A DNA stretch of 56,529 bases from Bdellovibrionales bacterium (GCA_020435005.1 JAGRAE010000002.1:1-56529); one strand, 5' to 3'. Shown: positions 6,651-37,823, counted from the stretch's first letter. Notes: generated from the sequence alone by a model not told the origin. Numbers and translations: made by a program.

Positions 6651-7064
6651 TCATTTATAAGTGTTTAGAATTTCCTCGGAATATTTCATAAATTCTTGTA
6701 GGTGATGTTTTACAATGTGCTTTAAAATTTCTAAATTTATTTCTGTGTACTCGTGAACCGCTATGTTTCTAAAGCCAGCCATTTTTGCCATGGCTTCAGC
6801 TGAGCTTTTAGAAATGATTTTATCTTTTTCTAGAATTTGAAATGCTGCTCTATAAGAATTTGGCAGAGATAATTTTTTATAAGCAATCGTAGTTTGAGCC
6901 ATATCGATAGCAGCCTGGCAAGCTCTCTGCAAATTTAAAACCACAATATTTTCAACTGCGAATTCATTTAGATTGCTGACCTCATCATTCACTGTAGACT
7001 TTATTGCCTTAATGCAATTTTTAATAATATTAATCTTTGATAGAACTACATCTTTCTCTAACAT
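6651..7064 (-). CDS. hepT: HepT-like (DUF86) RNase toxin
   Basis: 137 aa with the Rx4HxY signature (FRNIAVHEY). It lies 3 nt downstream of a minimal nucleotidyltransferase gene, the canonical MntA-HepT order. Confidence 0.8.
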   Translation of the reverse strand: MLEKDVVLSKINIIKNCIKAIKSTVNDEVSNLNEFAVENIVVLNLQRACQAAIDMAQTTIAYKKLSLPNSYRAAFQILEKDKIISKSSAEAMAKMAGFRNIAVHEYTEINLEILKHIVKHHLQEFMKYSEEILNTYK

Positions 7065-7067
7065 ACT

Positions 7068-7460
7068 TTAATTTTCCAAGATCTTATCTTCAATTATTTT
7101 ACGAGATCGTTTAAAGTCAATATATTCACTCATTTTCTTAGCTCTATAATTAATCAAATATAATTTATCGTTGTTTATTAAAAGCTCACCATTTGTTAAT
7201 ATTTGTGAAATAATGATAATATCAGCTTTATTCATTAAAATAAGATCAATATTTCTATCTGTATTCAGATAGTTTGAAAGATCAGAGTAGAGTTCAAATG
7301 AATCTACTTCTTCTTCCATATACGCGGCAATATCAATATCGCTTTGATCATTAAATCTTTCTGTAGATACCAATGAGCCCAGTACAAAAACGAATTTGCA
7401 TTTCCTACTTTTGAAAAACTCAACTATATTTTTTTTTATATTTTCAACTTCATTATTCAT
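7068..7460 (-). CDS. mntA: MntA-like minimal nucleotidyltransferase antitoxin
   Basis: 130 aa with GS-x10-DxD (GSLVSTERFNDQSDIDIA), typical of the MNT partner of HepT. Confidence 0.8.
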   Translation of the reverse strand: MNNEVENIKKNIVEFFKSRKCKFVFVLGSLVSTERFNDQSDIDIAAYMEEEVDSFELYSDLSNYLNTDRNIDLILMNKADIIIISQILTNGELLINNDKLYLINYRAKKMSEYIDFKRSRKIIEDKILEN

Positions 7461-7596: not shown

Positions 7597-8145
7597 ATGA
7601 AGCATATTATGTTTTTAATATGTATGGTGTCGATTTATAATGCTCAAGCATTTGAACTCAGCGGGAAATGGGTCAGTCCATCGGGGCAAGTTATTAATAT
7701 TTACCCAACAAATGATGAATACATTGCCTATAATATTGTAGAGTATACGGACCAAAACCACCGCTTAACTGGAGATGTAATTCACTACTATTGGCTGTTT
7801 AACAAAAGCGACAAACAACATGAATTTACTGGAACACTCAATACGGTAGACACCTACTGGCAGTGCGAGTTGGAGAATGGAGAATTTAAAGTTCAAGTTC
7901 TAAATCAAGATAAAATTTTAGTGCTTTACCCAAGCATTACCTTTGCCAGAGAGGATCGCTATAGAAGTAAATGGCAAAAAAAGCGTGTTCCTATTTATTG
8001 CAACTATAATTCTAGATGGGAATCATTTGATTACATCTGTGGCTGGCACTGGGAACGAGTGAAAGTACAAGAGAGTTACTTGGGCTCAACATGCAATATT
8101 AAATCTAGAAACACAACACCTATTGAGTTGGATCGATTGAAGTAA
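7597..8145 (+). CDS. Secreted Cys-containing hypothetical protein
   Basis: Signal peptide MKHIMFLICMVSIYNAQA. Strong SD GGGGAGGGAG upstream. No family recognised. Confidence 0.5.
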   Translation: MKHIMFLICMVSIYNAQAFELSGKWVSPSGQVINIYPTNDEYIAYNIVEYTDQNHRLTGDVIHYYWLFNKSDKQHEFTGTLNTVDTYWQCELENGEFKVQVLNQDKILVLYPSITFAREDRYRSKWQKKRVPIYCNYNSRWESFDYICGWHWERVKVQESYLGSTCNIKSRNTTPIELDRLK

Positions 8146-8169
8146 GAAAATGTTCTTTTCAATTTAAAT

Positions 8170-11085
8170 TTACTCGATGGAAATAACAAATGAACTTCTG
8201 TCTATTGAAAAATTACTGTCCCCCACCACAAAAATTCTTCCATCACCATCAATTACTAAGCCGTAAGCGGTATCATCTGTTGGCGAACCTCCACAATAGC
8301 TTTCTGAATGAAATAAGCCTGAACTTGCAAAATCTGTATCTAAAGCACCTTGAGGGTCAAGCCGCCAGATTACCGCTCTATCGCCTCCACCAGAGTTATT
8401 ATAAGATCTGCCTGCAATAACAATATTTTCTTCTTCATCTAAAGCTATATCAAATCCATATGAATTGCCTAAACCGCTACTTAATGCTACGTCAGTATAT
8501 TTTCCGCCCGCGGCAAAATTTGTGTCTAAGCCAGATCCATCTGCTTTTAATTTCCATACAGACATATTGTCATATACGCCATATTCAAAACCTGTCATTA
8601 GGATATCATTGTTGGAATCAATTGTGAGAGCTGCAGCTTTACAGTTGGTGGTACAAGTTACTATGTATTTCCCATCAGAGTCAAAACCTGTATCTAAAGT
8701 TCCATCTGCTTTTAATTTCCATACTACGGCTTTGTCATAGCTTCCACTGTAAGCTGAGCCAACGACAATGATGTCGCCATTACTTAAAATTTCTAAATCT
8801 GAACCGCTTTCAATACCACCAGCGAGAACGCCGTGATTTATAAATGGGGAACCAGTATTAAAATTGGATATATATGAACCATTTGGTTCTAAGGCAAATA
8901 CAACCATATCAGCACCATTCCCACCGCCCGTGTCTGCTTCACCAGTTACAAAAATTTGATCACTAGAATTAACCTTTACCGCATACCCAATGTCATTTCC
9001 AAAACCCCAATCAATCTTAAGAATACCATCTGTGTCGAATGCTGTGTCTAATGCTCCATTTGGGTTTAGTTTTAATACTACCAGATCCTCTTGATATGAA
9101 GCATTTGTACTCTGACCGGTGACGATAATATTGCCAGAGCTGTCAATGGCTACATCATGGAATTCTTCGTCGGGTGTTCCTGGCGCTGATTGAGTCAAAT
9201 CATTAAATTTAGCCACACCATTGGTACCAAAACTTGTATCTAAGCTCCCATTGGGTAAATATCTCCAAACAACAGCATCCTTGTTTCCGCTAGAATTTTT
9301 ACTATAGCCAACAACAACTTTTCTGCCACTACTATCAATAGCGATAGCGTTAGCACTATCTTGAGAGTTGGCAGCGCCGGCAGTATTTGATTCAGTCACT
9401 ATACCATCTCCACTAAATCCATTATTAAAATTTCCTTGAGCAATAGTCTGTGGCTGGCTACCACTATGGAAACCATGATTATCTGCAGAATAAGTAGAGA
9501 AGAATTTTTTACTGTTTATTTCAAACCACGGGCATACTAAGGCTTTTTTACCATTTAGTGAGTTTGTATTTGCAAGATCAATGCTTCCTTCTACGTCTGT
9601 TAAACCCACAGCTTTTGTGGCAGCATAATAAACTGTTGGCAGATTTGGACTACTCATAGGTAAGTTTGCCACTCCTGAAATTCCACTCTTTAGAGCCATA
9701 TCGTGACAAGGTGTTATGTCTCTGTACTCTACATCTTGATCGACAATAAAAAAAGCTAAACCGTGGACCGCAGTTCCGGCGACTCCGGGTAAAAACCGCC
9801 AAGCCAGAGATGTATCATCAACATGTTGTAAAATCTGCGGACCATAAGTTCCGTCAATAACTTCAAAGGGTCCTTCAAAGGGAACGATTTTATGATCTCT
9901 TACATATTCTGGTTTAATTTTAATGCACTTATTAGTTACTAGGTTTTCATCACTGGTTGTTTCACAAGCAATGCTATCAGTTGCTGTTAATCCTGCGGAC
10001 TGTACAAAAAGAGAATCGTCATCGGCATTAATCGTTAATGCTTGAAAGTTAAGTTGATATCCCAACCAGGCGCTCTCAGTACCTCCAGAGGTGCCATTCG
10101 TTGGGTCTACATATTGGCCATAATTGTCTATAGGGTCTAACAAAGTATTACCTGAAAACTTTCTATATGCGTAAGGAGCTGGAGTATCTTCTGTTGGCAA
10201 CTGAATACTAAACTGGCTACCATTGGGCGCAGGAGTTCCATTTGAGCTAAAAAATCCTAGAACTATACTTTCTGCCTCGCCTTTCTCTGATTTGAAGTTA
10301 GATTCTCCCTCGGTATGCACTCTATAAAAATTGGGAACATTGATTTTTACTGCCGCGGAATCACTCGTCAAAAGTGGATCAATATCTTCTAAACTTTTCT
10401 CTACGAAGATGGGTGTTTTTGCACCAGTTAATTGTGCTGTGTGGATGTAAGTTAGTTTAACACCTTCAAAAAACATAAATTTAAACCACCCACTGAACAT
10501 ATACTCATCAAACAATTTCATTTTTGGCCGGCCAGTGCGTTTGGGTTGGTAGTAGCCTTCTATATGTCCTGACTTAAGTGACTCATGTCTTCCAGCTAAA
10601 CTTGCAGGCTTACCGCCACCTTCAACACTCCAATTATCTCCAATATCTACGTATACATTACCGCCATTGAAAACTACTCCAATTTCATCATCGTAGCCAA
10701 AAATCATTTGCTCAAATTCATTGGCAAACACAATTAGGACTTGAATAGTACGATTATTACCATTGGGAAAAGTTCGACCATTAAAATCTATTTGACTGGG
10801 AAAACTACAACTTGAAGGATCACCGCTTGATGAACTTTCCATTTCTTTGCAATCCCATTCATAAAAAGCTGTCTTTCCATCGAAGTGAACATTGGCGATT
10901 AGGTGCGCAGGAAAAAAACCATGGGGAATGCTAATGCCTCCCAAGCTTTGCACCTTTGAAAACTGATTAAAACTCATGCTTACTTTGGTGCCGTCGTCAT
11001 TAGATTTTCGCGTGCAGGCAGTTGAAATTGTTAATAAGAAAATAGTAAAAAATAACTTTCCAGAAAACGTTCTTAGATTCTTCAT
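8170..11085 (-). CDS. 971-aa lipoprotein: unknown N-terminal ~540 aa plus C-terminal delta-60-type repeats
   Basis: Lipobox LTISTAC. The C-terminal half has about 6 clear units with the signature LDT(S/A/G/N/D)F..(N/D/G)G (LDTSFGTNG, LDTAFDTDG, LDTGFDSDG, LDTNFAAGG, LDTDFASSG), as in the TIGRFAMs delta-60 repeat family as I recall it. Confidence 0.65.
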   Translation of the reverse strand: MKNLRTFSGKLFFTIFLLTISTACTRKSNDDGTKVSMSFNQFSKVQSLGGISIPHGFFPAHLIANVHFDGKTAFYEWDCKEMESSSSGDPSSCSFPSQIDFNGRTFPNGNNRTIQVLIVFANEFEQMIFGYDDEIGVVFNGGNVYVDIGDNWSVEGGGKPASLAGRHESLKSGHIEGYYQPKRTGRPKMKLFDEYMFSGWFKFMFFEGVKLTYIHTAQLTGAKTPIFVEKSLEDIDPLLTSDSAAVKINVPNFYRVHTEGESNFKSEKGEAESIVLGFFSSNGTPAPNGSQFSIQLPTEDTPAPYAYRKFSGNTLLDPIDNYGQYVDPTNGTSGGTESAWLGYQLNFQALTINADDDSLFVQSAGLTATDSIACETTSDENLVTNKCIKIKPEYVRDHKIVPFEGPFEVIDGTYGPQILQHVDDTSLAWRFLPGVAGTAVHGLAFFIVDQDVEYRDITPCHDMALKSGISGVANLPMSSPNLPTVYYAATKAVGLTDVEGSIDLANTNSLNGKKALVCPWFEINSKKFFSTYSADNHGFHSGSQPQTIAQGNFNNGFSGDGIVTESNTAGAANSQDSANAIAIDSSGRKVVVGYSKNSSGNKDAVVWRYLPNGSLDTSFGTNGVAKFNDLTQSAPGTPDEEFHDVAIDSSGNIIVTGQSTNASYQEDLVVLKLNPNGALDTAFDTDGILKIDWGFGNDIGYAVKVNSSDQIFVTGEADTGGGNGADMVVFALEPNGSYISNFNTGSPFINHGVLAGGIESGSDLEILSNGDIIVVGSAYSGSYDKAVVWKLKADGTLDTGFDSDGKYIVTCTTNCKAAALTIDSNNDILMTGFEYGVYDNMSVWKLKADGSGLDTNFAAGGKYTDVALSSGLGNSYGFDIALDEEENIVIAGRSYNNSGGGDRAVIWRLDPQGALDTDFASSGLFHSESYCGGSPTDDTAYGLVIDGDGRIFVVGDSNFSIDRSSFVISIE
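8173..9430 (-). repeat. Delta-60-type ~60-aa protein repeats (approximate bounds)
   Basis: Periodic LDTxF..xG ... (V/I)V(V/T)G motifs in the translated C-terminal half of the 971-aa ORF. Confidence 0.55.
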
Positions 11086-11213: not shown

Positions 11214-11831
11214 TTAGTAAGAAAACAAAACACCACAGAGTAAACCAAATTCAGACATAGATTCTTCGATTACACTGGCATTCATAAAGGTAGAAGATGT
11301 GACAATCTCACTTCGAATCACCATGTCACTCCTGTAGTGTAAATCAGCCCCAATTTTAATGCCGATGGTGACTCCTGAGGATTTTACCTTTTTTATTTTT
11401 TCTCCTTCGCGTGAGATTTCACCAAAGGCAAGACCCGCAGCACCACCTAAAAAGTAAGACCATTTTTTTGTAAAAAAATAGGATTCAGATTTTTGTGGGA
11501 CTATTGCCGGTACGACTCCCATATAATACCAACGCCAGGTAGCGTCGGTAAAGCCTACGCCGGAAGTAAATGGACCAAAGCGAAACCCTCTTCGATGTTC
11601 AATGGCAAAACTGAGTTTATCACTGATATTTTTTTCTAAGCCAATTCCAACAACAGCCGGACCTTCGCTGCGATTGGCATCAATATTTCCGTCATCAGTT
11701 TCTACCGTCTTTTGAATTCCAGTCCCACCAAAGCCACCTTTTAAGCCTAAGTTCCAATCTAAAGCATATGCAGAATATGATTGAAGGGTTAAAAATAATA
11801 AACTAAGCCACATTTTTTTCACTGTCATCAC
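11214..11831 (-). CDS. Small outer-membrane beta-barrel protein (OmpW/OmpA-barrel-like size)
   Basis: Signal peptide ending SAYA. Alternating hydrophobic beta-strand pattern with Gly/aromatic-rich strands, and a C-terminal FSY. The track start is a GTG at 11831; an ATG one codon downstream (11828) is equally possible. Overlaps the upstream gene by 29 nt. Confidence 0.6.
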   Translation of the reverse strand: MMTVKKMWLSLLFLTLQSYSAYALDWNLGLKGGFGGTGIQKTVETDDGNIDANRSEGPAVVGIGLEKNISDKLSFAIEHRRGFRFGPFTSGVGFTDATWRWYYMGVVPAIVPQKSESYFFTKKWSYFLGGAAGLAFGEISREGEKIKKVKSSGVTIGIKIGADLHYRSDMVIRSEIVTSSTFMNASVIEESMSEFGLLCGVLFSY

Positions 11832-13578
11832 TCTCTATTTTATCTTCACTAGAATTTATGTCTGGAACTGTAGCGGCTAGTTTATTTTTAAAAACTGTCT
11901 CTAAATTAATATCACCTAGGCCAATAAGTTGCCTTAACTTGTCCAACAAACTGTCTAGTAAAACAGATCTCTCCATTTCTCCTAAACTAGTTTCTTTTGC
12001 CAGATCATCCTTTAAAATAGCTTGTGTCATCGGTGGAACTATAGCCATGACTCGAGTCACCATGTCACTGCGAATCTGTAAGTAATTTAAAATTTCATCT
12101 GTTGATGCCCCTTTAAATAAAATTCTTAAATAGTCATCGGGCCACTCGTGTAGGAATGCTAATGATGGATTTTTTATTTTGTATTCTTCCATCATGTTGC
12201 CTTGAATTTTAGGGAGTATATTTAATGATTCCACAGAAGTTAACGAGTTAATCAATTTTGTTAACGTCATATCTAGAGACACCATACGTTCTTCAGACTC
12301 TGTAACAAAATTAGGGGCTAAATCATTTTCGATTTTTAATAATTCTTTTTCAGTGATGTCACTTAACTCTGCTGCTGTATTTAATAACTCAATCTTTTTG
12401 CTTTCATTGATTTCTTCTAAATATCTTTGTCTTTGGCTATCACTCATATAAAGAGTAACAATCGTGTTCATTTTTGCACTGTTTTGCATTAACACTTCAC
12501 TTAAGACACTAGTTTTAACTCCCCCAACGAAGGAAAAAGGTCGATGTAAAGTATCGCTTCCTAAATTTAAAGATGCCAATAAATCCCAATAAACTTGACT
12601 ATAGGCTTCAAGTCTTTCATGAGTGCTCATATTACGCATACTTTTAAAGGTTCTAGCTACATCTTCTCTGAACTCTTCTTGCAGGGGCAATGGGTTGACA
12701 ACTTTGCCTGCAGCTTCAGCTAAGCATGCAACTTGAACGATACCTTGCTCACCAAGTAAACACCATTCCTTCAAAATATAGGCTAGGTCATTTTTTAACT
12801 GAGGAACGATTTCTATAATTTGCTCTTTCACACGATTTATTTTTTCTACCATCCCCTCTTCATCTGCGCCATTATTTTTTGAAGCGACCTCACCTGAACC
12901 AATACCACCACCCGCTCCATCACCTTGCATTTCCATTTTATTACTGACATTAATGCCGGCAGCCTGACCTTTTTCAGCAGAACCTGACATTGCTTTAATA
13001 ATTATAGCGGCGAGTATTAATGCTAAAGCCAAAACCGCCAATCCAACTAAGCTTTGTAAGTCTTTAATGCTTTCATAAATGCTTTTTTGAGGAGGGATCT
13101 CTTTGCTTTCTGGCAATTTGATGGTGTGGATGATGGCTTCACCTATCTTTCCAAACTCATCTTGGACACGTTTGGAAAACCACTCCGAGACTTCTTTTGT
13201 TAACTCTTCGCCGAGATTATTTTTAAGTCCTAAAGTTATCTCTACTTTTTTAATGGCATAGTCTTCCCAATAGTTTTTTATAAATTCCTTTTCGCCAGAA
13301 TAACTTTGATAAAGGGCCTCAGGATTAATATAAGTTAAATCCAAGTCTCCAATGGGCTTATTATCTTCCTCTTTAGGCTGCACTTTGGCTATTTGTAAGC
13401 TGGCAGATACTTTAAATTCACCTTCTATCACTCTGGTAGATAATTGCTGGCTATATTTTTTAACAATAAGACTCTCAAGATAAGATCTGGCGTTCATTAA
13501 GTCGGCAGATGGAGTGCTTTGCGCTAGTGCACTCATTGGTAAAAAAAATAAAACTAAGAAATAAATCCGACAAATCAT
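11803..13578 (-). CDS. Membrane-anchored FliG-like protein (signal peptide, ~150-aa periplasmic domain, one TM, Gly-rich linker, ~350-aa FliG/MgtE_N-like helical cytoplasmic region)
   Basis: Signal peptide MICRIYFLVLFFLPMSALAQ. TM helix LVGLAVLALALILAAIIIKAM. The C-terminal segment FKGASTDEILNYL...MTQAILKDDLAKE...LRQLIGLGDINL parallels E. coli FliG LKGAEQPLREKFL...AADILRDDLANR...RRLAETGEMVI (recalled from memory). An upstream segment, NTIVTLYMSDSQRQRYLEEINESKKIELLNTAAELSDITEKELLKIENDL, resembles the FliG middle-domain pattern. Start overlaps the upstream gene stop (ATGA). Confidence 0.5.
   Translation of the reverse strand: MICRIYFLVLFFLPMSALAQSTPSADLMNARSYLESLIVKKYSQQLSTRVIEGEFKVSASLQIAKVQPKEEDNKPIGDLDLTYINPEALYQSYSGEKEFIKNYWEDYAIKKVEITLGLKNNLGEELTKEVSEWFSKRVQDEFGKIGEAIIHTIKLPESKEIPPQKSIYESIKDLQSLVGLAVLALALILAAIIIKAMSGSAEKGQAAGINVSNKMEMQGDGAGGGIGSGEVASKNNGADEEGMVEKINRVKEQIIEIVPQLKNDLAYILKEWCLLGEQGIVQVACLAEAAGKVVNPLPLQEEFREDVARTFKSMRNMSTHERLEAYSQVYWDLLASLNLGSDTLHRPFSFVGGVKTSVLSEVLMQNSAKMNTIVTLYMSDSQRQRYLEEINESKKIELLNTAAELSDITEKELLKIENDLAPNFVTESEERMVSLDMTLTKLINSLTSVESLNILPKIQGNMMEEYKIKNPSLAFLHEWPDDYLRILFKGASTDEILNYLQIRSDMVTRVMAIVPPMTQAILKDDLAKETSLGEMERSVLLDSLLDKLRQLIGLGDINLETVFKNKLAATVPDINSSEDKIESDDSEKNVA
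11902..12126 (-). other. FliG C-terminal-domain-like segment, including ILKDDLA (11998-12018)
   Basis: ILKDDLA against E. coli FliG ILRDDLA, the segment carrying the Asp-Asp pair implicated in MotA contact. Flanking FKGAS and GDINL match LKGAE and GEMVI. Confidence 0.45.
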
Positions 13579-14228
13579 TTTACCTCGGGCGCCTTTTTCT
13601 TTGCTGGTAAAGAAGCCGGCAAGCGCAATCTTTTTCGTACACTTGCTGCCATCTCTACTGCGTGGATTAGCGCTGGCTCAATTTCCAAAGCTTTTTCAAA
13701 CCACTCTAGACTTTCTTTAAAGTCACCCTTTGCATAATATATAGAAGCTTTCATTGATAAAGCTCTTGCAAACTCTGGATAGTTTTCAACTACTTTATCT
13801 ATCTCAATAAGAGCTCGCTCAAATTGTTTTGATCTAGCAAAACTCTGTGCCAAAAACATTTTGTCTAGAATTTCTTTTGCTGACTTTAGCTCTTCTATCT
13901 TTTTGTCATCTTTTTTTAGTCGTACATTTATTTCACTTTCAATTAATCCAGATGCAGACAGGGGTAACCAAATATTTCGTGTGATATAGTCTTCTTTCTC
14001 AATACTTAAGGTGACAAATTCGCCCGGCTTACCAAAACTATCAAAAGCTTCTTTGATTTCGTCATTTTTCTTTTCAATAGGAGTTACACCCAATTTTTTC
14101 TTTTCTCCAGACTCTGCATTAATTACCCATACCGTAGCCTTTTCTGGCTGTGTAATAATCTTCAGTTGCGTACTACAACCGAAGCTCAAAAATAAAATTG
14201 GAACTAATATAAAAATATAATTTTTCAT
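13575..14228 (-). CDS. Lipoprotein with N-terminal PEGA-like domain and C-terminal TPR repeats
   Basis: Lipobox LSFGC. PEGA-like stretch LKIITQPEKATVWVIN...LGVTPIEK...VTLSIEKEDY. TPR-like helices: ALIEIDKVVENYPEFARALSMKASIYYAKGDFKESLEWFEKALEIEP. Confidence 0.65.
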   Translation of the reverse strand: MKNYIFILVPILFLSFGCSTQLKIITQPEKATVWVINAESGEKKKLGVTPIEKKNDEIKEAFDSFGKPGEFVTLSIEKEDYITRNIWLPLSASGLIESEINVRLKKDDKKIEELKSAKEILDKMFLAQSFARSKQFERALIEIDKVVENYPEFARALSMKASIYYAKGDFKESLEWFEKALEIEPALIHAVEMAASVRKRLRLPASLPAKKKAPEVK

Positions 14229-14312: not shown

Positions 14313-17300
14313 TCAAGGTAATGAGCTTTTTATAATTAAGGCCGAAGAATTTAAATTTACCATGCCTCCACTCGGCTCAAGTCGAGTCGAGAAACGTTGT
14401 CCTGAAATAAGGGTTAAGGCTCCAGTTCTCTGTCTTTCTCTAAGGTCACTATTGAAACTTAACATAGAACTCACTTCAGCATTAAGTCCAAAACTTCCAC
14501 TGTCATTGGCATGATAAACCAGACTAACGTCGGCTGAACTTGTAATATCGTCTTCCAAATCAGCCTCAAAATAAAGCAAAGGATTTGAATATAAACTCAA
14601 GTCCAAATAAATACGGTCATCATAATAGTCTGTGCTAGAGCCCTGTGGATCCTGAAGACCGGCCATTCTATAGTAGGAAATAGCCTTGGTCAGATTTTCT
14701 AGTTTAACCCATAATCCAGCTTTGTGAAGAGCAACCGTACCTGATGAACAATTATATTCACACATGATTTGAATTTCATAGAGGTGACCTTCATTAGAAG
14801 AATTGAAATTGGCTACACCTTCATCAATGGGTATATTCGCAAGAGTAAGCGCATTATTACTGAATCGAGTATAAGTTCCATATACTAATTGCCCCACGTC
14901 ATTGTTGTTTAGAGCAACAACTCCTTCTGCTGTGCCCGTAGTAGAAACAATGGCCTCTAACTCCCAAGCATTAAAATCGGTAAGATTTTCCAAGTCATTA
15001 GCCTGGCGTAAAAACTGAATCCTTGAGTTCGGCGAAGAAAAGTCCAATGCCATAGTAGAATGAGCAAACACCTCTCCATCATTGGCTGATGGAATTTGAG
15101 AAACACTCAACAAGGGAAAATACAATTTTGTTTTAGATGCATTGCTTTGATTTACTAGTATTTTTGCTGAGTTCACTTCGACTTGTGCAGCAAAAGTAGA
15201 TGTTGATATTTTTATGCGATATTTATCGCTCCCTATATTAGGAGCAAAACTTGTTCTTAAGCGAGTATAGTCTGTTGTATTTGCAGGTAATAAAATACTG
15301 GCAATTTCCACATTTCCTTCATCCACCAAGTAAATATTGTGTGATGATGAATCTGAATTTTTTGCTATAACTTCAAATTCATAACTCGTAACACCATCAT
15401 AATCATCCGTATTTAATGAAGTCATTGTTCTTTGAAATGTAACGTCTGTTAAGTCTGAAGAGGCCAATCGTGTATCTGTTAATTCAATAGGTACTTGTAA
15501 TTTTAGAGAACCACTTCTGTTGATATTTGCTTCATTTGACACTGGACTTATACTATTATCAGCATAAACTCCGGTAACTACATAATAATAACTAACATCT
15601 GCTACAGCAGAAGTATCAATATATGAATTCGTACCCACATTGGTTATAACTCCGTAAGGTCCTCCAGAATTTTCAGATCTGGCCACATTGTAACTACTCG
15701 CTCCGGCAAGAGAGTTCCAATTCAACTGCACCCCTGAAGCAGCATTAGATGCTAACAAACTAGCGGGTCCACCATTTAAATTTATCCCTACTTCGTTAGA
15801 GTAAGCTGAAGCTACTTTCTCGAGTGTCACCGTTTGTACAACATAAAAATAAGTATTTCCAGAGACTACAGTATTGTCCGTATACTGAATTGTTGGCGCT
15901 GTTACACTAGCAATTTGACTGTAAGGACCTCCAGAGCTCGTCCCCCTTAAAATACGATAGGTATTTGCAAGTGGTGTTGAAATCCAACTTAAATTTACAG
16001 ATGAATTATCTTCAGCCGAAAGATGTAATGATTGTGGAGCTAACGGAAGAAAACCTATATTAATCCCTGAGCTAATGGCTGAGTCAGCCATGGCTCGCCC
16101 ACTGGCATCAAAAGATTTATAATAATAATAATAGGTGGTATTGGGATCGATTGTGGCATCATTGTAGGTTGTTGAAGCTATCCCAGATGCTAATAGATTA
16201 AAATCATAGCTATCAGTAGATCGATATACATTATAAGTTACGGCATTTGTTACAGCTGACCAAGACACATCTATACTTGAAGCACTTCCCCACTCCACAG
16301 TTGGTGCTGCAGATTCTAAATCCGTTACGATAATTGCATCTGGCGTGAGGGCGGACTCCATATCACCATTTGTTGCAGAAACCGCTATATAGTATGTGGT
16401 GCCTAAATTTAAACCAGCAATAACCACGTCTTGATTAGATGATGAAGTTTGAACAGGAGTCACATGACTAGGAGTAGTATCTACATAAACCTTATATGTA
16501 TTTACACCTTCTACTTTACTCCAGTCTAGAACCAGCTCTGTCCCTGTATTATTATTTCTAACAAATACCTGTGTGGGTGCTAAAGGTGTTATTCCGGGTG
16601 TAGCTCCACTTGTTGAGCTGGAAAGAGTGCTTCCTGAAGCAAAATTTGCTTGTACTTTGTAAAAGTATATCTGTCCGTTGACAGTTCCAGTATCTAAATA
16701 ACTACTTGTTGGATGGCTGGTTACTACTGAGGAAAAGTTTTTTCCATCTGAAGAGCGTAATAAATCATAGGTCAGCGCCCCACTTACTGGTGTCCATGAA
16801 ACATTGAGTTGATTATTCCCGACAGTAACAATAGGAGCCCCCGGATTAGAATATGTATAAATACTTTTTGGAGTAGTTAAGTATTCTGTAGCACTGACAA
16901 TAGCACCCACTTTAATAAAATATTGAGTGTTTGCTGAGAAACCACTCACCGTAGTTTCTGCTCCTGCTCCAGGTAAAACTGCTTTTTGCGTATAAGGACC
17001 ACCGGCTGAGGTTGCAGAATAGACAAGGTGTTGGGTGGCTGTTGGTATGGGTGTCCATTTAACTTTTATTGATGTACCAGAAACAATTTCTAGACTTACA
17101 CCAGATGGTGTCGTTGTCCCATCATTGAGTTTAGCTGATTTATAAGTAGTTAATTGACCTAGTGTTGAATCAGCAAATGTCGCTTGTACTTTATAATAAT
17201 ACCCAACTCCATTGGCGGCAGTAGAATCAATATAAGAATTTATAGCTGGATTTCCAATTTCAGAATAAACTCCATTATACTCAGTCGCTCTAAATACTTT

Positions 17301-20300
17301 ATAGCCATTCGCACCTGTCACCAAATTCCAATTTAATGTAATGTCTGTTGTTGAAGCTGATAAAGAAAAGCCGCTTATGGTTGCTTTTCTAAATGAAACT
17401 ATATTAGTTGCTGAGGTTTCTTGATTACCCCATACACCCTTTACATAAAAATGATTAAGACCTTCTATTAAAAAAGCACTAGGAACAATATTGCTTGGAT
17501 AGTTGCCTACAAGAGTATAAGGACCACCAACATTAGTAGCATGGTAAAGATTAAAGCTATTAAAATGAGTTGGCGCTGTCCAATGTAGCTCAACAGTTTC
17601 CAAGCTATTTACCTTAACTGTTAAATTTGTTGGATCATTTGAAATAATACTGGGGGTTCCACTGCGAACTTCACTGTGAGGACCAACAAGATAATAATGA
17701 CTCGGTGATACTGTCTGAACATGAGTTTGAATATAATAATAGTAAGTCGTTCCCTGAGAAACTGTATTATCAGTATAACTTAAGGATGCTTCGTCACTAA
17801 CTATTTTAGTATAAGGACCATTAATGTCTGTGGCTCTATAAATATCATATAAAGGATTTGTACCACTGTACAAATTTCCCCCGTCAGGCTGATTCCATTT
17901 CAAAACAATTTCACTGTCCCCAGGATCTAAATCTAAAATCGGTGGATTCGTCCATCTGTAATAAACAACATTGGACTCATCTGAACTGTCAGATCCCCAC
18001 TGGGCAATAACCGAAAGAGAGTGATTTGAATCCATATTCCAGCCACAGTAGACATGGCTAAGTTGACTTGTAGTTTGATTTAATATCCTTGCCCCACCAT
18101 TGCTTCCGCGCAGAATACCAAATTCTGTATAATAGTTTGTTGGAGACCATGAAAGCTGTAAGCCTTGATTGTAAGAACAATCTTTATGTGAAGGATATCC
18201 TTGTATAACAAGGTTTGATGGTGCCGCTGGAAGGGGGCGTGGATATGCAGAAGCCATATTGGATTCCATACTCTGACCTGAAGGATTAATTCCTTTTACA
18301 ATGTAATAATAGCTTTGGTTATTATTGACTGTGTTGTCGACATAAATTGTAGTTGAGGTTTCAACCCCCAAAGAGACAAATGGACCTCCCGAAGTTGTCG
18401 AGCGATAAACCTTATAAGTCATATTATTTATATTTGAACTCCAAGAAAGACGCACTTCACTGTCGCCAGGAATAGCTGTTAAGCTGTTTGTATTTGCTGG
18501 AGCCCCTGCGCTAATTGTTATACTCTCTACTGTAGAGTTTTGGCTTCTGCCGGTGCTATTGGTGGCAAGAACTCTATAGTAATAGGTTTCACCTTCATTT
18601 ACTAAGTCATCAGTTAAGTTATTAGCGTTCAAAGAAGAACCCACAATAGTAAATGGACCTGAAGCAGAAAGTGATCTTTCTACAGTATAGGTGGGAAGAG
18701 GTGAAGAAACTAAATCTGGTAACCAAGTTAAGTAAACGCTTCCATCAAAGTTATTACTCACAGTTAATGATTGCGGAGGAAGATCGTGATGTTTGAAGTT
18801 GATTTGGAATTGGCAATCTGAAAAAGTCGAAACTTCATTGATAGTAGCAGCATAAAGAGATGTTGTGACGTTAGAAGGAAGAACAACATCTATACCCGCA
18901 TTTTCATAATCAATTGGAGATCCACTAGTGAGTAAACTACTACAAGAACTATCTGTATAAATGCCTACGCTGGTGCGATTTAAAAAGTCAGAACTAGCAC
19001 CAAAAACCCCTTTTATTTTTACGTTCTTTGTGAAAGACGGCGTAGTCGGTGTGGAACTTGTAAATATAGGTTTTCCTGGTTTATAGCTATCATGAGTGTA
19101 ATTAGTCATAAGTGTACACATACTGCCATTGTTGGCGTCATCAAAAGCTTTAGCATATAGAGCAGTGACGTTGTCTGCAGAAACATTTGCTATGATTCCT
19201 GCTCCAGAAAATTCAACAGGTGTGCCTTCACCTACCTTATTAGTACAAAATGAATTGTCGTATATCATTATTTTTGAAACAGGCAACTGACTTGTAACAG
19301 GCGCTGACGAGCTACCTAGTATTAATGGACTTGTGGATATGGCATTTGGTGAAAGCGGGCTGGTCGCACTAAAAACAGGGTTATTAGGTGGGATAGTATT
19401 ATGAATAAAGGTCATCAAAAAACCACAACTAGAGACATTGCCATAAATATCTGTCGCAATGGCATGAATATCCGTTGTTGAGTTAGAAGGTAAAGTAATT
19501 TGAATTCCGGCAGAAGTAAATTGTCCTTTTGATCCACTACCCAAAGAATTCGCACAAGTATTATCATCATATAGCTCCACCGTAACTATACTCGAATGAG
19601 CTGTACCTACAATAAAAGGCATATTAGAACCATTGGTCGGTGTTGCAGGAAATGAATACAACAAACCGACATTAGGTGCAGGAATATTTGAATGTTCATA
19701 ACTTGCATGAAATCCACAATTAGAAACGTTACCCTCAATATCACTAACTTGAACATAAATAGAATTATTATTATTGGCTTGTAATGCTAAAGGTATACCA
19801 GAGCCTTCATATTGCGCGGGTGTTCCACTTCCAACAAGTGCTGTACAGTTTTCATCGGAATAAAAAGAAAGGGCATTTGTGTATTGTAAAGCTGTTCCAA
19901 AAATACTGGGATTCGTATTATTGTTATTGGGAGAGCTGGGTGTTGTTCCTGAATAAATGGGAAAGTCAGGGGGGATAGTATTGTGTTTATATTGAGTCAT
20001 ATAAGTACAAGTTGAAGCATTACCCGAAGGATCATAATTTTGTGCATAGATTTGAGTCGTTGTATTTTCATCAACACCCACAGGAATACCAACACCCTCA
20101 AAAGCTGCTTTTGTACCGGCTCCGATTTGAGTTAAACATAATGGTGACACATAAAACTTAACAGTGAGTGTGTCAGCACTCGCCGTTCCCTTTAGCTTAG
20201 GATTTAATATACTGTTATTTGGAGATATAGGATTAATAGATACATAGGTCGGAGGCTCAGGAGGTAAGGTGTCATGAACATAAGTCGTTAAAAAAGAACA

Positions 20301-21224
20301 TGCAGAAGGGTTGTTATTATCATCAATTGATTTTGCATATAAATTTGTCGTTGAGTTATTATTCAGAATTACTTGTAGGCCAGGACTTTCAAATGTTTCT
20401 GGAGTGCCTGTTATTAAAGCGTTTGAGCAAGATGCATCATTATAAATTGTAATTTGAATCGCATCATCTGATGTGAGTCCCTGAATGAGAGGAGTCGAAC
20501 TAGTATTGTTCGGGGAAATGGGTACTGAAGCTGTAAATACAGGGTTAGTTATAACAGTATCTAAATGGGTGTAACTAGTTAGATGCGTACAGTTTGATTT
20601 TTGAGCTAATAAATCCTCAACATAGGCATATATTTCAGTTGTTTGGTTTTCAGTGAGAATAATTTGTATCCCATTGCCTTCAAATTCTATAACGCTACCG
20701 TTTCCAACAGCTGTCTGACAATTGACATCGCTAAAAAAGAAAATAGTTGCAGAACTTGGAAAGGCAGTACCAAAAATTCCGGGGCTGGCATTTTCTCTGG
20801 TGGGAGACTCGGGTGATGTTTTAGAAAATTTTGGCACACTGGGTTTTAATTCAACAGGCTCATAATCCATAAAAAACAAACAATCATCACTATTCATGGT
20901 TGTGACATATAGTTTTTTTGGATTATTATTATTCATTGTTAAATCTACGCCGTACAAATTGAAATCTTTAACTGCCACGCTTCCAATGCTTGTACCCGTA
21001 CACTGTTTGTTTTCATAAAAATCAAGTATGTCTAAATTAACAACGCCCTTGATTTGAATTTCACCAGTCACATGAATGTTGATCTGGGCAGAACTATAAT
21101 CTTCAACTGAGAGACTGAAGACTTGGATGGGCTCTGGAACTGGAGTTGCATTTTTTTCTCCCTTTTTGCAAGAGATCTGAAAAATAACAAAAAATGCTAA
21201 GGTTATAAACTTTAAAAACTTCAT
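14313..21224 (-). CDS. 2303-aa giant surface lipoprotein: ~8 Cys-pair Ig-like repeats, ~12 FN3 domains, ~400-aa unassigned C-terminal domain
   Basis: Lipobox VIFQISC. Repeats are described in the two sub-features. No LPXTG, PEP-CTERM, T9SS CTD or autotransporter barrel is recognisable at the C-terminus (...LNSSALIIKSSLP). Confidence 0.8.
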   Translation of the reverse strand: MKFLKFITLAFFVIFQISCKKGEKNATPVPEPIQVFSLSVEDYSSAQINIHVTGEIQIKGVVNLDILDFYENKQCTGTSIGSVAVKDFNLYGVDLTMNNNNPKKLYVTTMNSDDCLFFMDYEPVELKPSVPKFSKTSPESPTRENASPGIFGTAFPSSATIFFFSDVNCQTAVGNGSVIEFEGNGIQIILTENQTTEIYAYVEDLLAQKSNCTHLTSYTHLDTVITNPVFTASVPISPNNTSSTPLIQGLTSDDAIQITIYNDASCSNALITGTPETFESPGLQVILNNNSTTNLYAKSIDDNNNPSACSFLTTYVHDTLPPEPPTYVSINPISPNNSILNPKLKGTASADTLTVKFYVSPLCLTQIGAGTKAAFEGVGIPVGVDENTTTQIYAQNYDPSGNASTCTYMTQYKHNTIPPDFPIYSGTTPSSPNNNNTNPSIFGTALQYTNALSFYSDENCTALVGSGTPAQYEGSGIPLALQANNNNSIYVQVSDIEGNVSNCGFHASYEHSNIPAPNVGLLYSFPATPTNGSNMPFIVGTAHSSIVTVELYDDNTCANSLGSGSKGQFTSAGIQITLPSNSTTDIHAIATDIYGNVSSCGFLMTFIHNTIPPNNPVFSATSPLSPNAISTSPLILGSSSAPVTSQLPVSKIMIYDNSFCTNKVGEGTPVEFSGAGIIANVSADNVTALYAKAFDDANNGSMCTLMTNYTHDSYKPGKPIFTSSTPTTPSFTKNVKIKGVFGASSDFLNRTSVGIYTDSSCSSLLTSGSPIDYENAGIDVVLPSNVTTSLYAATINEVSTFSDCQFQINFKHHDLPPQSLTVSNNFDGSVYLTWLPDLVSSPLPTYTVERSLSASGPFTIVGSSLNANNLTDDLVNEGETYYYRVLATNSTGRSQNSTVESITISAGAPANTNSLTAIPGDSEVRLSWSSNINNMTYKVYRSTTSGGPFVSLGVETSTTIYVDNTVNNNQSYYYIVKGINPSGQSMESNMASAYPRPLPAAPSNLVIQGYPSHKDCSYNQGLQLSWSPTNYYTEFGILRGSNGGARILNQTTSQLSHVYCGWNMDSNHSLSVIAQWGSDSSDESNVVYYRWTNPPILDLDPGDSEIVLKWNQPDGGNLYSGTNPLYDIYRATDINGPYTKIVSDEASLSYTDNTVSQGTTYYYYIQTHVQTVSPSHYYLVGPHSEVRSGTPSIISNDPTNLTVKVNSLETVELHWTAPTHFNSFNLYHATNVGGPYTLVGNYPSNIVPSAFLIEGLNHFYVKGVWGNQETSATNIVSFRKATISGFSLSASTTDITLNWNLVTGANGYKVFRATEYNGVYSEIGNPAINSYIDSTAANGVGYYYKVQATFADSTLGQLTTYKSAKLNDGTTTPSGVSLEIVSGTSIKVKWTPIPTATQHLVYSATSAGGPYTQKAVLPGAGAETTVSGFSANTQYFIKVGAIVSATEYLTTPKSIYTYSNPGAPIVTVGNNQLNVSWTPVSGALTYDLLRSSDGKNFSSVVTSHPTSSYLDTGTVNGQIYFYKVQANFASGSTLSSSTSGATPGITPLAPTQVFVRNNNTGTELVLDWSKVEGVNTYKVYVDTTPSHVTPVQTSSSNQDVVIAGLNLGTTYYIAVSATNGDMESALTPDAIIVTDLESAAPTVEWGSASSIDVSWSAVTNAVTYNVYRSTDSYDFNLLASGIASTTYNDATIDPNTTYYYYYKSFDASGRAMADSAISSGINIGFLPLAPQSLHLSAEDNSSVNLSWISTPLANTYRILRGTSSGGPYSQIASVTAPTIQYTDNTVVSGNTYFYVVQTVTLEKVASAYSNEVGINLNGGPASLLASNAASGVQLNWNSLAGASSYNVARSENSGGPYGVITNVGTNSYIDTSAVADVSYYYVVTGVYADNSISPVSNEANINRSGSLKLQVPIELTDTRLASSDLTDVTFQRTMTSLNTDDYDGVTSYEFEVIAKNSDSSSHNIYLVDEGNVEIASILLPANTTDYTRLRTSFAPNIGSDKYRIKISTSTFAAQVEVNSAKILVNQSNASKTKLYFPLLSVSQIPSANDGEVFAHSTMALDFSSPNSRIQFLRQANDLENLTDFNAWELEAIVSTTGTAEGVVALNNNDVGQLVYGTYTRFSNNALTLANIPIDEGVANFNSSNEGHLYEIQIMCEYNCSSGTVALHKAGLWVKLENLTKAISYYRMAGLQDPQGSSTDYYDDRIYLDLSLYSNPLLYFEADLEDDITSSADVSLVYHANDSGSFGLNAEVSSMLSFNSDLRERQRTGALTLISGQRFSTRLEPSGGMVNLNSSALIIKSSLP
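15520..18780 (-). repeat. Array of ~12 fibronectin type III-like domains (approximate bounds)
   Basis: A ~85-90-aa period with a recurring L.W......Y.(V/I)(Y/F)R(S/A)....GPY......(T/S).Y.D......(T/S)YYY.V pattern (e.g. YKVYRSTTSGGPFVSLG...SYYYIVKG; YNVARSENSGGPYGVI...SYYYVVTG). Confidence 0.75.
18781..21120 (-). repeat. ~8 Ig-like adhesin repeats of ~97 aa, each with a conserved Cys pair (approximate bounds)
   Basis: Recurring P(V/I)(F/Y)....P.SPNN...P.I.G.......(I/V).(F/Y)Y.D..C....G.G......(E/S).GI.......N.TT.(I/L)YA...D..GN.S.C.......H...P unit, e.g. ...ITIYNDASCSNALITGTPETFESPGLQVILNNNSTTNLYAKSIDDNNNPSACSFLTTYVHDTLPP. Confidence 0.7.
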
Positions 21225-21226
21225 GC

Positions 21227-24200
21227 TTAAAGCCCCAACATTAATTTAATTTCATTATTTGTTCCGTCGATAAAAAGTAAGTCAATGGTTCCGTCATGAT
21301 TAACATCTGTAAGTTCAACGCCCACGGTATTAATATTGCTTGGTATTATCTTAGAGTTTGAGAAATCCCCAAAAAATGATCCCAATAGGGCAGTGGCTTT
21401 TTGATTCAATCCATTGCCTACAATAAGATCTTCGTTATTGTCGCCATTTAAATCAGCCTTCCTAATAGAAGTCGGGTCAGCCCCACAGCTGTAGTTAACT
21501 GGCAACCCTAAAGATCCATCACTGTTGCCAAAGTAGACACTCACTGAAGCTGATAAACTATTAGAAACAGCGACGTCTATGTTTAAATCACTATTAAAGT
21601 AACCCACAACAACACCATTGGGTCCAGTTTGTGTACTATAATTTGCCGGACCAGTAAATGTCCCATCACCATTGCCCAAGTAAACGCCCACGGAGTTTGC
21701 TGATTGATGTGTAACTATTAAATCTACAATTCCATCTTGGTTCATGTCGCCCGTGGCGAGCGAAGACGGCTGAGCAGATGTGTTGGTATCTGATCGTGTA
21801 CTAAAAGTTCCGTCACCAACGCCGGGAAAAAAAGATAAACTATTGGCTCCGGAATTTGCTACAACTAAGTCCAAGTTCCCATCTTTGTTAAAATCTTCAA
21901 AGGTTAAAGCAGAAGGCTGTGATGCTACTCCATAAATTGTTGGTGTATCAAAACTCCCCGACCCTGTATTTAAATAAACTTGGATGTTATTAACGTTTTG
22001 GTTAACAACTACTAAATCAATATCATCGTCATCATCTATATCTGCAGATTTTATGGCTACGGGACCAGATGATGTTAATAAGGTATTAAAATTGGCAAAC
22101 AAACCCAAACCATTGCCAATTAAAATTTGAATATTATTGTCTCCATTATTCACCACGGCTTGGTCAATGTGTCCATCACCATTAAAGTCAGCCGTAGTAA
22201 TGTCTCTTGGACCATTGCCTACAATATTTTTATAACCGATAATTCCACCTGCCTGGGTGGGTATAACTTGAACCTTTTTATCACCATTCGAAACTACAAC
22301 GATATCTTGAAAAGCATCGTCATTTGTTTCATTGACAATCACATCCAAGGGGTTAGACCCCACAAGAATTGGTGCTAAAATATTAAAAGTCCCATTTCCT
22401 AGTCCCTGTAAAACAGATAAGCTGTTATCAATGCTGTTTGTTACAAATAAGTCAGGATTATTGTCATTGTTATAGTCTTTTGCAAATAAGGCTGTTGGCC
22501 CCTGTCCCACTAAGGTATTAATGGGCAAATTCATGCCACCGGCCTGATCATTTATAAAAACGCTCACATTATTATCTACATTGTTTGCGGTAGCGATATC
22601 TAAATATGTGTCATTGTCAAAATCAGCTATCATTAAATCGGAGGGAGCCACTCCAGTAAAATAATTGGCCTGTGCTAAAAAGCTACCAGCTCCATTATTT
22701 AAAAACACACCCACATTGTCGAGAGCAGAGTTAATCACAACTATATCAAGCCCATTGATTTTGTCTAAATCACCGACTTCAACTTTCGAGGGCGAAGTTC
22801 CTGCCCCGGTAGGTAAAAATGTTGGTGCAGAAAAAGTTCCATCACCAACGCCATATCTAATGGCTATTAAATTAGCTCCCACAGAGACAGATAAAATATC
22901 TAAATGATTGTCGCCATTTAAATCACCAGAGGCTAAAGCCACCGGCAGATTTTCACTGACATCCAAATTAATATCAACCGCAGCATTAAAAGTACCGTCA
23001 CCAACTCCAGTAAATAGACTATACTTGTTGTTACAGGATATAAATAAATCTAAATGAGTATCTTCATTGTAATCTCCTGTAATAAGAGCATAGGGCGTTG
23101 TACAAATGCTATTTATTTTTGATTGCGAATTAAAAAATGCTCCATTTTGCCCAAGCAATATACCAATACTAGGATCTCCTTTGTTTAGAAGAGCAATATC
23201 TAAAATGGAATCTTCATTAAAATCGCCCATAACAATATTTTCAGGACTATTTCCCAAAGAAAAATTTAAGTCAAAATTACCATTGTTATTTGTTGTTCCT
23301 ATAAGACTTAACGAAATGATAGCTTGTCCTGTGCCTGCATTATCCGGTAACGGAGAGCCCGCCGGAGTGACTGTAACCGTACTTTTTGTGCTGTGAAAAC
23401 CTTGTTGAACAGTAATGCTAGCAAAACCATTGGCATCTGTTGACTGTTGATTTGAGTCTAAAAACAATAAGCTTCCCACTTTTTGTGTAAAAACTACTGG
23501 ATACGCCGGAACACCATTTCCATATTGATCAACGACTTGAACTTTTAAGACATCTAAAAAATCTAATCCAATTGTTTGTGACTGATCGGCCCCTGAATCA
23601 ACTGGCAAAATAAAATGGTCGGGAAGATCTGCGGCAACTGTTATATTAATCTCTAAACTTGCACCAAGTGAATCTGTAAGAATTATTTTGTCCATTACTC
23701 CAGCTGTAGTTCCTGCCGTATATGTGTTCGTATTTGGATCAAAAGTAGCTCCAGAGTTATTTTCTTGAAGCACTAAAGTATAAGAACTACTTCCACCCGA
23801 AGGAGAGAAAACTTGTTCTTGTGTAGCCACAATTGTGGGATTATCGGGAGTTACTTCTAATACTCTTTTTTCCCATAGGAAGTTGGAGCTTGCTTCATTA
23901 TTTGCTAAATCTTTTTGTGTAAGCGTAAAATTGTAATCGCCATCTGAAAACTTAGGTATAGCTATACTAAAGCTTGATGATGCACAAATGTCTGTTCCCA
24001 CTCCATCACCACTCAATGTAATAGTTGAACCAGTTTCGCAGTTGCCGGTAATATTCAAAACAGTTTCTGAAGATTTATAGATAGAGCTTGGAGGATAAGT
24101 AATATCTGGTGGTGGCACAGTGGTTTTTCTCTGCCAGGTTAATGTTGTTGGTTCAGAACTGGTGCCGTCATAACTTTGAGTAAGAAAAAAATTATAAATA

Positions 24201-24523: not shown

Positions 24524-24543
24524 TTTTATGCTCCCACATCAAC

Positions 24544-32438: not shown

Positions 32439-32495
32439 CTTTGGTACTATCGGAGAAAAAATACAGACCTTCAGCCTTATCTAAATTTCTAGATC

Positions 32496-37711: not shown

Positions 37712-37823
37712 ATCATTATTAGATTACACGAGTATCTTATATTAAAAAAACATTCTCTAAAAACTGTTATGACTAAGATATTAGTTTTTATTAAATACTG
37801 ATCTAAAGCCAGTATGAACTGGA

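Follow-up and report, generated by a model that had tools for sequence, protein, structure and literature searches.

We found that a 591-aa protein encoded within 56,529 nt of DNA from a Bdellovibrionales bacterium (GCA_020435005.1 JAGRAE010000002.1:1-56529; this whole stretch is referred to as the window) is a natural fusion of two flagellar proteins, in which the C-terminal half of FliF, comprising its third ring-building motif (RBM3), its second transmembrane helix (TM2) and its tail, is joined to FliG, represented by at least its middle and C-terminal domains, and in which a cleavable signal peptide stands in place of TM1, RBM1 and RBM2. This identity is drawn from collinear homologies to FliF, from RBM3 to the C-terminus, and to FliG. 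The protein is unlike canonical FliG in having a signal peptide and a TM helix, in lacking the EHPQR motif and in being encoded outside flagellar operons, and it differs also from canonical FliF, having no TM1, RBM1/2 or beta-collar; it represents a new fusion variant of FliF and FliG. FliG and the stator MotAB are seen as the torque pair that defines the flagellum, and we know of no system that keeps the FliG torque domain and a flagellar-type stator together outside that organelle. We consider it probable, at roughly 60%, that the fusion protein forms a ring driven by a co-conserved MotAB, constituting a non-flagellar rotor–stator whose output passes through partners in the cell envelope.

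Anatomy and homologies of the fusion protein

The open reading frame (ORF) lies on the minus strand and is real, as judged from its start context and the architecture of its family. The tetratricopeptide repeat (TPR) lipoprotein gene upstream ends in a stop codon that overlaps its ATG (ATGA), and a GAGG Shine-Dalgarno sequence precedes this ATG by 5 nt. The public gene call places the start at Met15 (577 aa), by which 13537-13578 and the signal peptide are lost; we favour the long start (591 aa) because family members have an N-terminal signal-peptide-like h-region, often with an AxA motif. The gene and the parts of its product are as follows, with the basis of each assignment in parentheses (AF2, AlphaFold 2; pLDDT, predicted local distance difference test).

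11803-13578, minus strand: FliF(C-terminal half)::FliG fusion gene, 591 aa (ORF, start context, family and homology)
13519-13578, minus strand: signal peptide, residues 1-20, with predicted cleavage between …SALA and QS (hydrophobic N-terminal segment and AxA motif, family-wide)
13120-13506, minus strand: periplasmic split ring-building motif, FliF-RBM3-like, residues 25-153 (AF2, Foldseek and hhalign)
13261-13383, minus strand: short insert, conserved in the family, that separates RBM strands 1 and 2, residues 66-106, with the motif DLxLGxLDPExL (conservation)
12991-13053, minus strand: single TM helix, residues 176-196, equivalent to FliF TM2 (hydropathy 3.0; aligned to FliF TM2)
12865-12987, minus strand: Gly-rich disordered cytoplasmic linker, residues 198-238 (pLDDT 25-38)
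12742-12864, minus strand: helices resembling the FliF C-terminal tail, residues 239-279, ending W272-C-x-x-G276-E-x-G279 (aligned to the end of FliF)
12544-12741, minus strand: helical stretch where FliG_N would be expected, residues 280-345, not shown to be homologous to it (confident AF2 helices)
12214-12543, minus strand: FliG middle-domain homologue, residues ~346-455 (profile, hhalign and Pfam per member)
11869-12213, minus strand: FliG C-terminal-domain homologue, residues ~456-570, with PSLAF[LV]xEW and the torque helix (profile and hhalign)
12004-12009, minus strand: Asp524-Asp525, equivalents of E. coli FliG D288/D289 (alignments)

The original prediction had read from the sequence a signal peptide, a periplasmic part of about 150 aa, one TM helix, a Gly-rich linker and a helical region, and this anatomy was borne out by AF2 and hydropathy. 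In the AF2 model of the full protein (pLDDT 68), residues 239-570 are all-helical, with about 20 helices, and the hydrophobic segment 176-196 is part of one long helix. The topology of a signal peptide plus one TM helix puts the FliG-like part in the cytoplasm and not in the periplasm.

As a single query, the 591-aa protein matched no Pfam or NCBIfam family, giving only noise (RGS, esterase), and its identity to FliG is only 12-17%. A profile of ten family sequences, searched against PDB sequences, placed ten FliG chains on top, the best match (E=6.3e-6) being 8z4d, the structure of an engineered FliF–FliG fusion; with a 63-member profile, FliG chains were the 13 best matches, and T. maritima FliG_MC was matched end to end at E=5e-17. 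By hhalign, the family matched an alignment of eight FliG sequences with Prob 97.4 and E=1.6e-11, the reversed control giving E=0.59, and the match to E. coli FliG as a single sequence was weaker (Prob 82%). Pfam searches of the individual members detected FliG_M in 37/63, FliG_C in 32/63 and MgtE_N in 25/63, with one member exceeding the gathering score of FliG_M; FliG_N was matched in 5/63, and these matches may fall on the M domain. Foldseek with the full AF2 model returned FliG chains as 13 of the best 14 matches, with alignments to full-length FliG covering 320-334 columns. The FliG_C-like domain proposed originally is thus recovered by profile, alignment and structure; for the segments preceding it, likened at the time to FliG_M, FliG_N or MgtE_N, the FliG_M and MgtE_N resemblances stand, and FliG_N was not found by sequence. 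The most conserved motif of the family, PSLAF[LV]xEW, lies no more than 2 residues from the MFXF hinge of FliG in the profile alignment.

For the N-terminal half, an AF2 model of residues 21-166 (36 sequences) had a pLDDT of 84.5, with the core above 90; its elements are alpha 25-46, beta 55-65, the insert 66-106, beta 107-119, alpha 124-145 and beta 146-153. In a Foldseek search with this model, chains of the FliF membrane–supramembrane (MS)/S-ring and SctJ (PrgK, MxiJ) came first (E 2.7e-3 to 3e-2, prob 0.97-0.99), two FliF ring chains having E of 2.7e-3 and 4e-3 with prob 0.99, and the TM-score was about 0.5 against RBM3-only chains. The original speculation that two periplasmic segments might be like ring-building motifs holds, in that the fold is RBM-like by Foldseek and by hhalign to FliF, with the correction that the two segments are parts of one split RBM. 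In FliF, a beta-collar of ~110 aa is inserted between strands 1 and 2 of RBM3 (PMC4768692). At this site, opposite a long alignment gap, the fusion carries an insert of ~40 aa, which has low pLDDT (residues 66-106) and in which G82 is conserved in at least 90% of the family.

Aligned by hhalign with 11 diverse FliF proteins, the family gave Prob 88.4, E=2.8e-6 and a score of 58 over 282 collinear columns, running from column 228, where RBM3 begins, to the C-terminal residue of FliF and taking in the ~280 N-terminal residues of the fusion. The reversed control gave E=0.19 and a score of 20, from the TM only, and the match to E. coli FliF as a single sequence was weak (Prob 16%); the FliF alignment (11 sequences) was assembled from E. 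coli and plasmid-borne flagellar loci, and the FliG alignment (8 sequences) from plasmid-borne flagellar loci. In addition, the 63-member profile found a weak FliF match in PDB (E=0.027) at TM2 and the tail, and hmmsearch aligned …vvrsWlesGe of the family with …VIRQWINNDH, the extreme C-terminus of E. coli FliF. Residues 239-279 align with the FliG_N-binding tail of FliF, formed by its ~35 C-terminal residues (…RIREMSDNDPRVVALVIRQWINNDH), and W272, G276 and G279 are present in 60, 56 and 62 of the 63 members, respectively. The YscJ_FliF family of Pfam was matched in none of the 63, TM1, RBM1 and RBM2 (the SctJ-homology region, in which FliF houses the export gate) being absent from the fusion, and a profile of the periplasmic domain found no RBM protein among PDB sequences. 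For the periplasmic domain taken alone, we hold the RBM3 assignment with moderate confidence.

A word-indexed search yielded nine relatives, all of them proteins from metagenome-assembled genomes (MAGs) or metagenomes of Bdellovibrionaceae/Oligoflexia, one being named FliG by the Joint Genome Institute (JGI); use of the 63-sequence alignment in this search added no relatives beyond the first set. An exhaustive search, covering 1.84 billion cluster representatives, matched 312 clusters at E<=1e-3, of which 159 reached E<=1e-30; at 50% identity, the family thus comprises no fewer than 312 clusters. Almost all members have 570-700 aa, are matched end to end and share the same architecture, the signal-peptide-like N-terminal segment being found family-wide. 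The 13 matches from named genomes were all in Bdellovibrionota MAGs except one, locus L018, which is labelled Pseudomonadota, and 20/20 clusters looked up came from metagenome assemblies. Such an origin is the probable reason why the family has gone unnoticed, with annotations of 'hypothetical' or occasionally 'FliG'; full-text literature searches found no description of it. The failure of the single-sequence search and the low identity to FliG might also be expected if the gene were a decaying, functionless relic of a duplicated fliF-fliG region, or if the similarity came from helical-repeat composition. We consider the relic reading excluded by conservation, since the clusters are so numerous and nearly all full length, the operon structure is conserved, and W272, G279, W331 and D524 are invariant or nearly so; the profile matches, moreover, were abolished in the reversed-sequence controls, and we give hardly any weight to either variant.

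Torque helix, linked stator and proposed mechanism

The segment ILKDDLA of the fusion protein aligns with ILRDDLA of E. coli FliG, whose C-terminus was quoted correctly in the original prediction. The equivalents of D288 and D289 (D524 and D525) are acidic in 61/63 and 57/63 members, respectively, and the neighbouring charges are less well kept, the equivalent of K264, for example, being basic in 38/63. The FliM-binding motif EHPQR has been lost from the family: E125, H126, P127 and Q128 correspond to Q, N, P and K in 43, 34, 28 and 34 of the 63 members, respectively, and the position equivalent to E. coli FliG R160 is variable.

Two stator genes are present in the window.

37814-38674, plus strand: MotA/PomA-type stator A subunit, with the probable true start at Met23, 37880 (NCBIfam and PDB profile)
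38684-39415, plus strand: stator B subunit of the MotB type, containing a plug and a peptidoglycan-binding domain like that of OmpA (Pfam MotB_plug and OmpA; NCBIfam MotD/MotB/MotS)

The window MotA matched the PomA/MotA/MotP models of NCBIfam over its full length at 1e-40 to 1e-35 (PomA, 5e-40), with PomA/MotA scores that fall below the equivalog cut-offs, as compared with 1e-9 for TolQ. Likewise, a profile of seven locus-linked MotA proteins matched the PDB sequences of MotA at 1.6e-46 and PomA at 1.6e-42, as compared with 3.6e-4 for TolQ. The Arg equivalent to PomA R88 and MotA R90 is invariant in these seven (7/7); it was placed by HMMER alignment to PomA, the cytoplasmic loop of MotA having been misaligned with that of E. 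coli MotA by MAFFT. The Zorya anti-phage system (ZorAB) was ruled out with PADLOC, which gave no ZorA for MotA or the fusion protein and only generic ZorB/MotB similarity. Directly after motB, at 39417-40558 (minus strand), lie tatC and a tatA/B-like gene.

Beyond the window, the gene context of 16 different loci was read, 13 of them in GTDB genomes and the others on metagenome contigs (designated here by L numbers). In 11 of the 16, orthologous MotA/MotB, 42-60% identical to those of the window, lie within 4 kb of the fusion gene in several arrangements: divergent upstream (L003, L019 and L034), co-directional upstream (L036), on the same strand downstream (L012, L013, L014 and L037) and convergent downstream (L035). 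In L033 MotAB follows the fusion gene after 14 bp, and in L018 the genes overlap in one operon.

From these observations we propose the following mechanism. After cleavage of the signal peptide, the RBM domains would assemble at the inner membrane as a small ring in the periplasm, which would place a ring of FliG_C-like domains under the membrane. A stator of the MotA5B2 type, anchored to peptidoglycan through MotB, would contact the Asp-Asp torque helix with the invariant Arg90, and ion flow through the stator would push or rotate the FliG_C-like ring. There is no FliM/FliN switch, because EHPQR has been lost, and no genes for an export gate, rod, hook or filament were found near the fusion gene. 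In the periplasm, the motion would be passed, probably via the conserved RBM insert, to the TPR lipoprotein, which is translationally coupled, and to the small outer-membrane (OM) barrel, from which it may reach giant surface lipoproteins with fn3 and FG-GAP domains.

Several points weigh against a rotor–stator of this kind. The function, with ring formation, torque reception through contact with MotA and rotation, is predicted from homologies, architecture, residue conservation and gene linkage. By sequence, the periplasmic part alone is a weak match to FliF (hhalign E=1.3e-3 and 0.17, collinear), OsmC/Ohr folds came close behind FliF and SctJ in the Foldseek search with this domain, and in place of the beta-collar, by which FliF holds the rod, there are ~40 residues that are poorly modelled. 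FliG_N is not aligned by hhalign, and its slot has only ~65 residues (280-345). Among the charges involved in torque, the equivalent of R281 is basic in only 27/63 members and is Met in the window protein, that of R297 is not conserved in the family, and that of PomA E96/MotA E98 is variable or ambiguous in the linked MotA. With regard to linkage, the window MotAB is 24.2 kb from the fusion gene and on the other strand, and no MotAB was found in the 6-10 kb flanks read in four other loci. Finally, the linked MotAB might be stators of a normal flagellum in the host genomes, the reading here having been of the loci only, and the assignment of an output to the machine is by analogy. The pairing with MotAB, which the original prediction had noted from its presence in the same locus, is nevertheless much stronger than the window shows, given its position in the 11 loci described above.

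The missing beta-collar and the single remaining RBM would also suit a coupling or anchor that does not rotate, in which the FliG-like domain recruits and activates MotAB, and the protein, forming no closed ring, relays the rotation or power stroke of MotAB via its TM and RBM as a conformational pull on the TPR lipoprotein and OM barrel, like a TonB/TolA-type transducer for envelope maintenance, adhesin display or secretion. Such a role would be in line with other known non-flagellar 5:2 motors (ExbBD, TolQR, AglRQS and GldLM), which act on a bitopic partner and not on a cytoplasmic ring (PMC12505986, PMC13104615), and with the presence of peptidoglycan-binding (LysM, MotB) and OM components in the cluster. 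However, TonB-like partners engage their motor within the membrane, whereas the contact here would be between a cytoplasmic torque helix and MotA Arg90; the domain that has been retained is a ring-building motif, with 33-34-mer FliF rings as its best structural matches; and the FliF tail and the M and C domains of FliG, which tile the cytoplasmic ring (C-ring), have all been kept. We therefore regard the non-rotating alternative as rather unlikely and prefer a fusion-protein ring driven by MotAB.

Gene neighbourhood and comparison with known machines

The fusion gene and most of its neighbours belong to a run of genes on one strand, 30 kb long (8170-37711), and the window MotAB is located at its far end. 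The neighbouring genes are as follows.

11214-11831, minus strand: small (~205 aa) OM beta-barrel-like protein, its start overlapping the 3' end of the fusion gene (weak OMP_b-brl match and signal peptide)
13575-14228, minus strand: TPR lipoprotein, translationally coupled to the fusion gene by the ATGA overlap (Pfam TPR; lipobox SFGC)
14313-30366, minus strand: three giant lipoproteins (2303 aa, fn3-rich; 1098 aa, FG-GAP/Big_1; 1940 aa), candidate surface adhesins
30517-31560, minus strand: 347-aa secreted protein whose C-terminal half is beta-barrel-like and ends in Phe (conserved in L003 and L014)
31599-32438, minus strand: lipoprotein with two LysM (peptidoglycan-binding) domains (conserved in L003, L012 and L014)
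32496-36389, minus strand: 1297-aa cytoplasmic coiled-coil protein, ending in its sole Pro-rich motif, PLPPLPP (sequence)
36389-37711, minus strand: bitopic protein with a cytoplasmic GYF domain, one TM helix (134-152) and a periplasmic part of ~290 aa (Pfam GYF_2)
8170-11085, minus strand: 971-aa lipoprotein with a beta-propeller (DUF5122/SBBP), last in the run, cluster membership uncertain

The OM barrel gene downstream and the TPR lipoprotein gene upstream are as originally described, except that Pfam detected no PEGA domain in the latter, which had only generic TPR matches in PDB. The order TPR lipoprotein, fusion protein and OM barrel-like protein of ~200 aa is kept in most loci, usually with overlapping starts and stops, and orthologues of the fn3 and FG-GAP giants adjoin this module in most loci. 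The distant loci L018, L033 and L036 are rearranged, the position or orientation of the TPR gene being different, and the OM barrel gene is upstream of the fusion gene in L033 and separate in L018. In the same three loci, a (HAMP-)SpoIIE/PP2C phosphatase gene, absent from the window cluster, is situated directly beside the fusion gene/MotAB (L018, 12496-13980; L033, 13487-14962; L036, 7862-9328), which hints at phospho-regulation or partner switching in distant members.

Neither the window nor any of the 16 loci contains fliM, fliN, flhA, fliI, flg or other flagellar genes, in agreement with the original view of a FliG-like part fused to its own membrane anchor and periplasmic domain outside flagellar operons. 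This context bears on a further alternative, namely that the protein is an accessory of a true flagellum: a FliG paralogue acting as a membrane-tethered decoy, brake or clutch for one of several MotAB sets, which it would sequester, store or regulate, or as a polar stator nucleator. Bdellovibrio species are flagellated and have several motAB pairs, the stator found here is of the flagellar PomA/MotA clade with a plug and a peptidoglycan-binding domain, and some members of the family are labelled FliG by JGI pipelines, all of which would fit such a role. However, the fusion gene is never found beside fliF, fliH, fliM, fliN, flhA or flg in these loci, and its constant company is the TPR lipoprotein and small OM barrel, with giant adhesin-like lipoproteins in most loci. 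Moreover, a protein with its own RBM, TM helix and FliF tail would not need to dock on the flagellar MS ring, the motif for binding FliM has been lost, and a conserved periplasmic domain with its insert would be needless for a decoy. A flagellar accessory is thus, in our estimation, distinctly unlikely.

A separate rotor–stator, which we prefer, can be compared with the flagellar motor itself. In the FliF + FliG rotor, RBM3, TM2, the Trp tail, FliG_M and the Asp-Asp helix of FliG_C occur in the same N-to-C and outside-to-inside order as in the fusion protein, and the partner, as in flagellar stators, is of the MotA/PomA clade with an Arg90 equivalent, a MotB plug and a peptidoglycan-binding domain. 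The flagellar rotor, however, consists of two polypeptides and not one; the fusion has a signal peptide instead of TM1, RBM1 and RBM2, a short insert for the beta-collar, a shortened and unrecognisable FliG_N slot and no EHPQR. Its neighbours, too, differ from those of the flagellum: in place of FliM/N and the export, rod, hook and filament genes, there are genes for OM barrels, for a TPR lipoprotein and for giant lipoproteins resembling adhesins.

Natural and engineered FliF–FliG fusions have been described. The fusion of Chlamydiaceae, of ~330 aa, consists of the N-terminal (SctJ-like) part of FliF and a FliG_M-like domain only (Bergeron 2016, PMC4768692), and has been discussed in relation to the injectisome, with no MotAB partner described (PMC4768692). 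It resembles the present family in being a natural joining of a FliF RBM region and TM helix to a FliG-derived domain in the absence of a complete flagellum, but differs, as far as the published description goes, in that the present protein has RBM3, FliG_M, FliG_C with the torque helix and a dedicated stator. Engineered fusions show that covalent joining is compatible with ring assembly and rotation (PMC4768692; see also PMC11481574); those of Salmonella and Vibrio (e.g. PDB 8z4d/8z4g), however, are laboratory constructs with full-length FliF in a complete flagellum.

For the output, the closest parallel is by analogy with the Agl–Glt system of Myxococcus xanthus, in which the bitopic GYF-domain protein GltJ binds the long coiled-coil protein AglZ (PMC11761067). 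Both systems have an envelope-spanning cluster with a 5:2-type ion motor, periplasmic TPR lipoproteins, OM beta-barrels and a surface adhesin, and in the window the GYF–TM gene adjoins the coiled-coil gene. The coiled-coil protein has 29% Glu+Lys and 0.8% Pro, and its end reads …IPLPPLPPRD; its homologues in L014, L035 and L003 end in TPPLPPQT or TPPLPPS, or have PVPPPPPT near the end. The C-terminal PLPPLPP is likely a ligand of the GYF domain, by comparison with the GltJ–AglZ pair. The GYF–TM gene recurs in L003, L014, L016, L019 and L035, and the GYF/coiled-coil pair in several loci; the two proteins may form a cytoplasmic platform, like GltJ and AglZ. The differences are that the motor here is of the MotAB/PomAB type, versus the TolQR-type AglRQS, and that its partner is a FliF-FliG fusion, versus the TonB-like GltG/GltJ; ZnR, TonB_C and REC domains were not detected in the cluster (by Pfam, the GYF protein lacks ZnR and TonB_C), and the likeness is one of analogy, no sequence homology to Glt proteins having been shown. 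A further parallel in concept is GldLM with the type IX secretion system of Bacteroidota, where giant surface adhesins are moved by a rotary unit of the inner membrane that is powered by ions (PMC13104615). Its proteins, however, are not related to those described here: it is GldM that spans the periplasm, and a FliG-like rotor in the cytoplasm is lacking.

The GYF/coiled-coil parallel with GltJ–AglZ favours a role in surface motility, and adhesin movement, i.e. gliding or surface translocation, would by analogy be the most likely output. According to a 2026 review, the gliding motor, adhesins and force transmission of Bdellovibrio(nota) are still to be identified (PMC13104615). We advance tentatively, as a fuller proposal that is more open to doubt than the rotor–stator core, that the locus encodes an autonomous non-flagellar rotary motor, with a minimal MS-ring/C-ring made of the fusion protein, its own MotAB, the TPR lipoprotein and OM barrels as transmission, and the giant adhesins as output, which would amount to an unrecognised gliding or adhesin-conveyor machine without type III export. 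If a rotor–stator of this kind exists, the rotor–stator core would be redeployable or self-standing, and the system would be a living example of the flagellar rotor–stator module without a type III export apparatus, bearing on how rotation and secretion were joined in flagellar evolution. It would also supply structural and single-molecule studies with a minimal rotor made of one protein, and would be a concrete candidate for surface motility in Bdellovibrionota.

Other features of the window

The 971-aa beta-propeller lipoprotein had no tblastn match in any related locus and may be a lineage-specific addition or unrelated to the cluster. Over the coiled-coil gene (32000-38000), the AT skew falls to -0.35 and GC to 0.305 because Lys/Glu-rich codons lie on the minus strand, and the antisense ORF at 35128-35793 (plus strand) is almost certainly spurious.

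An HNH endonuclease gene (454 aa) is located at 54303-55667 (plus strand), near the end of the window, and in the closest relative, L001, an HNH gene (425 aa; 7744-9021) lies as an insertion between the gene for the fn3 giant and that for the TPR lipoprotein, and may be a mobile HNH element. In addition, at 6651-7460 (minus strand), between acyl-CoA carboxylase genes and the cluster, there is a toxin–antitoxin pair consisting of a HepT-like RNase and an MNT/Pol-beta nucleotidyltransferase.

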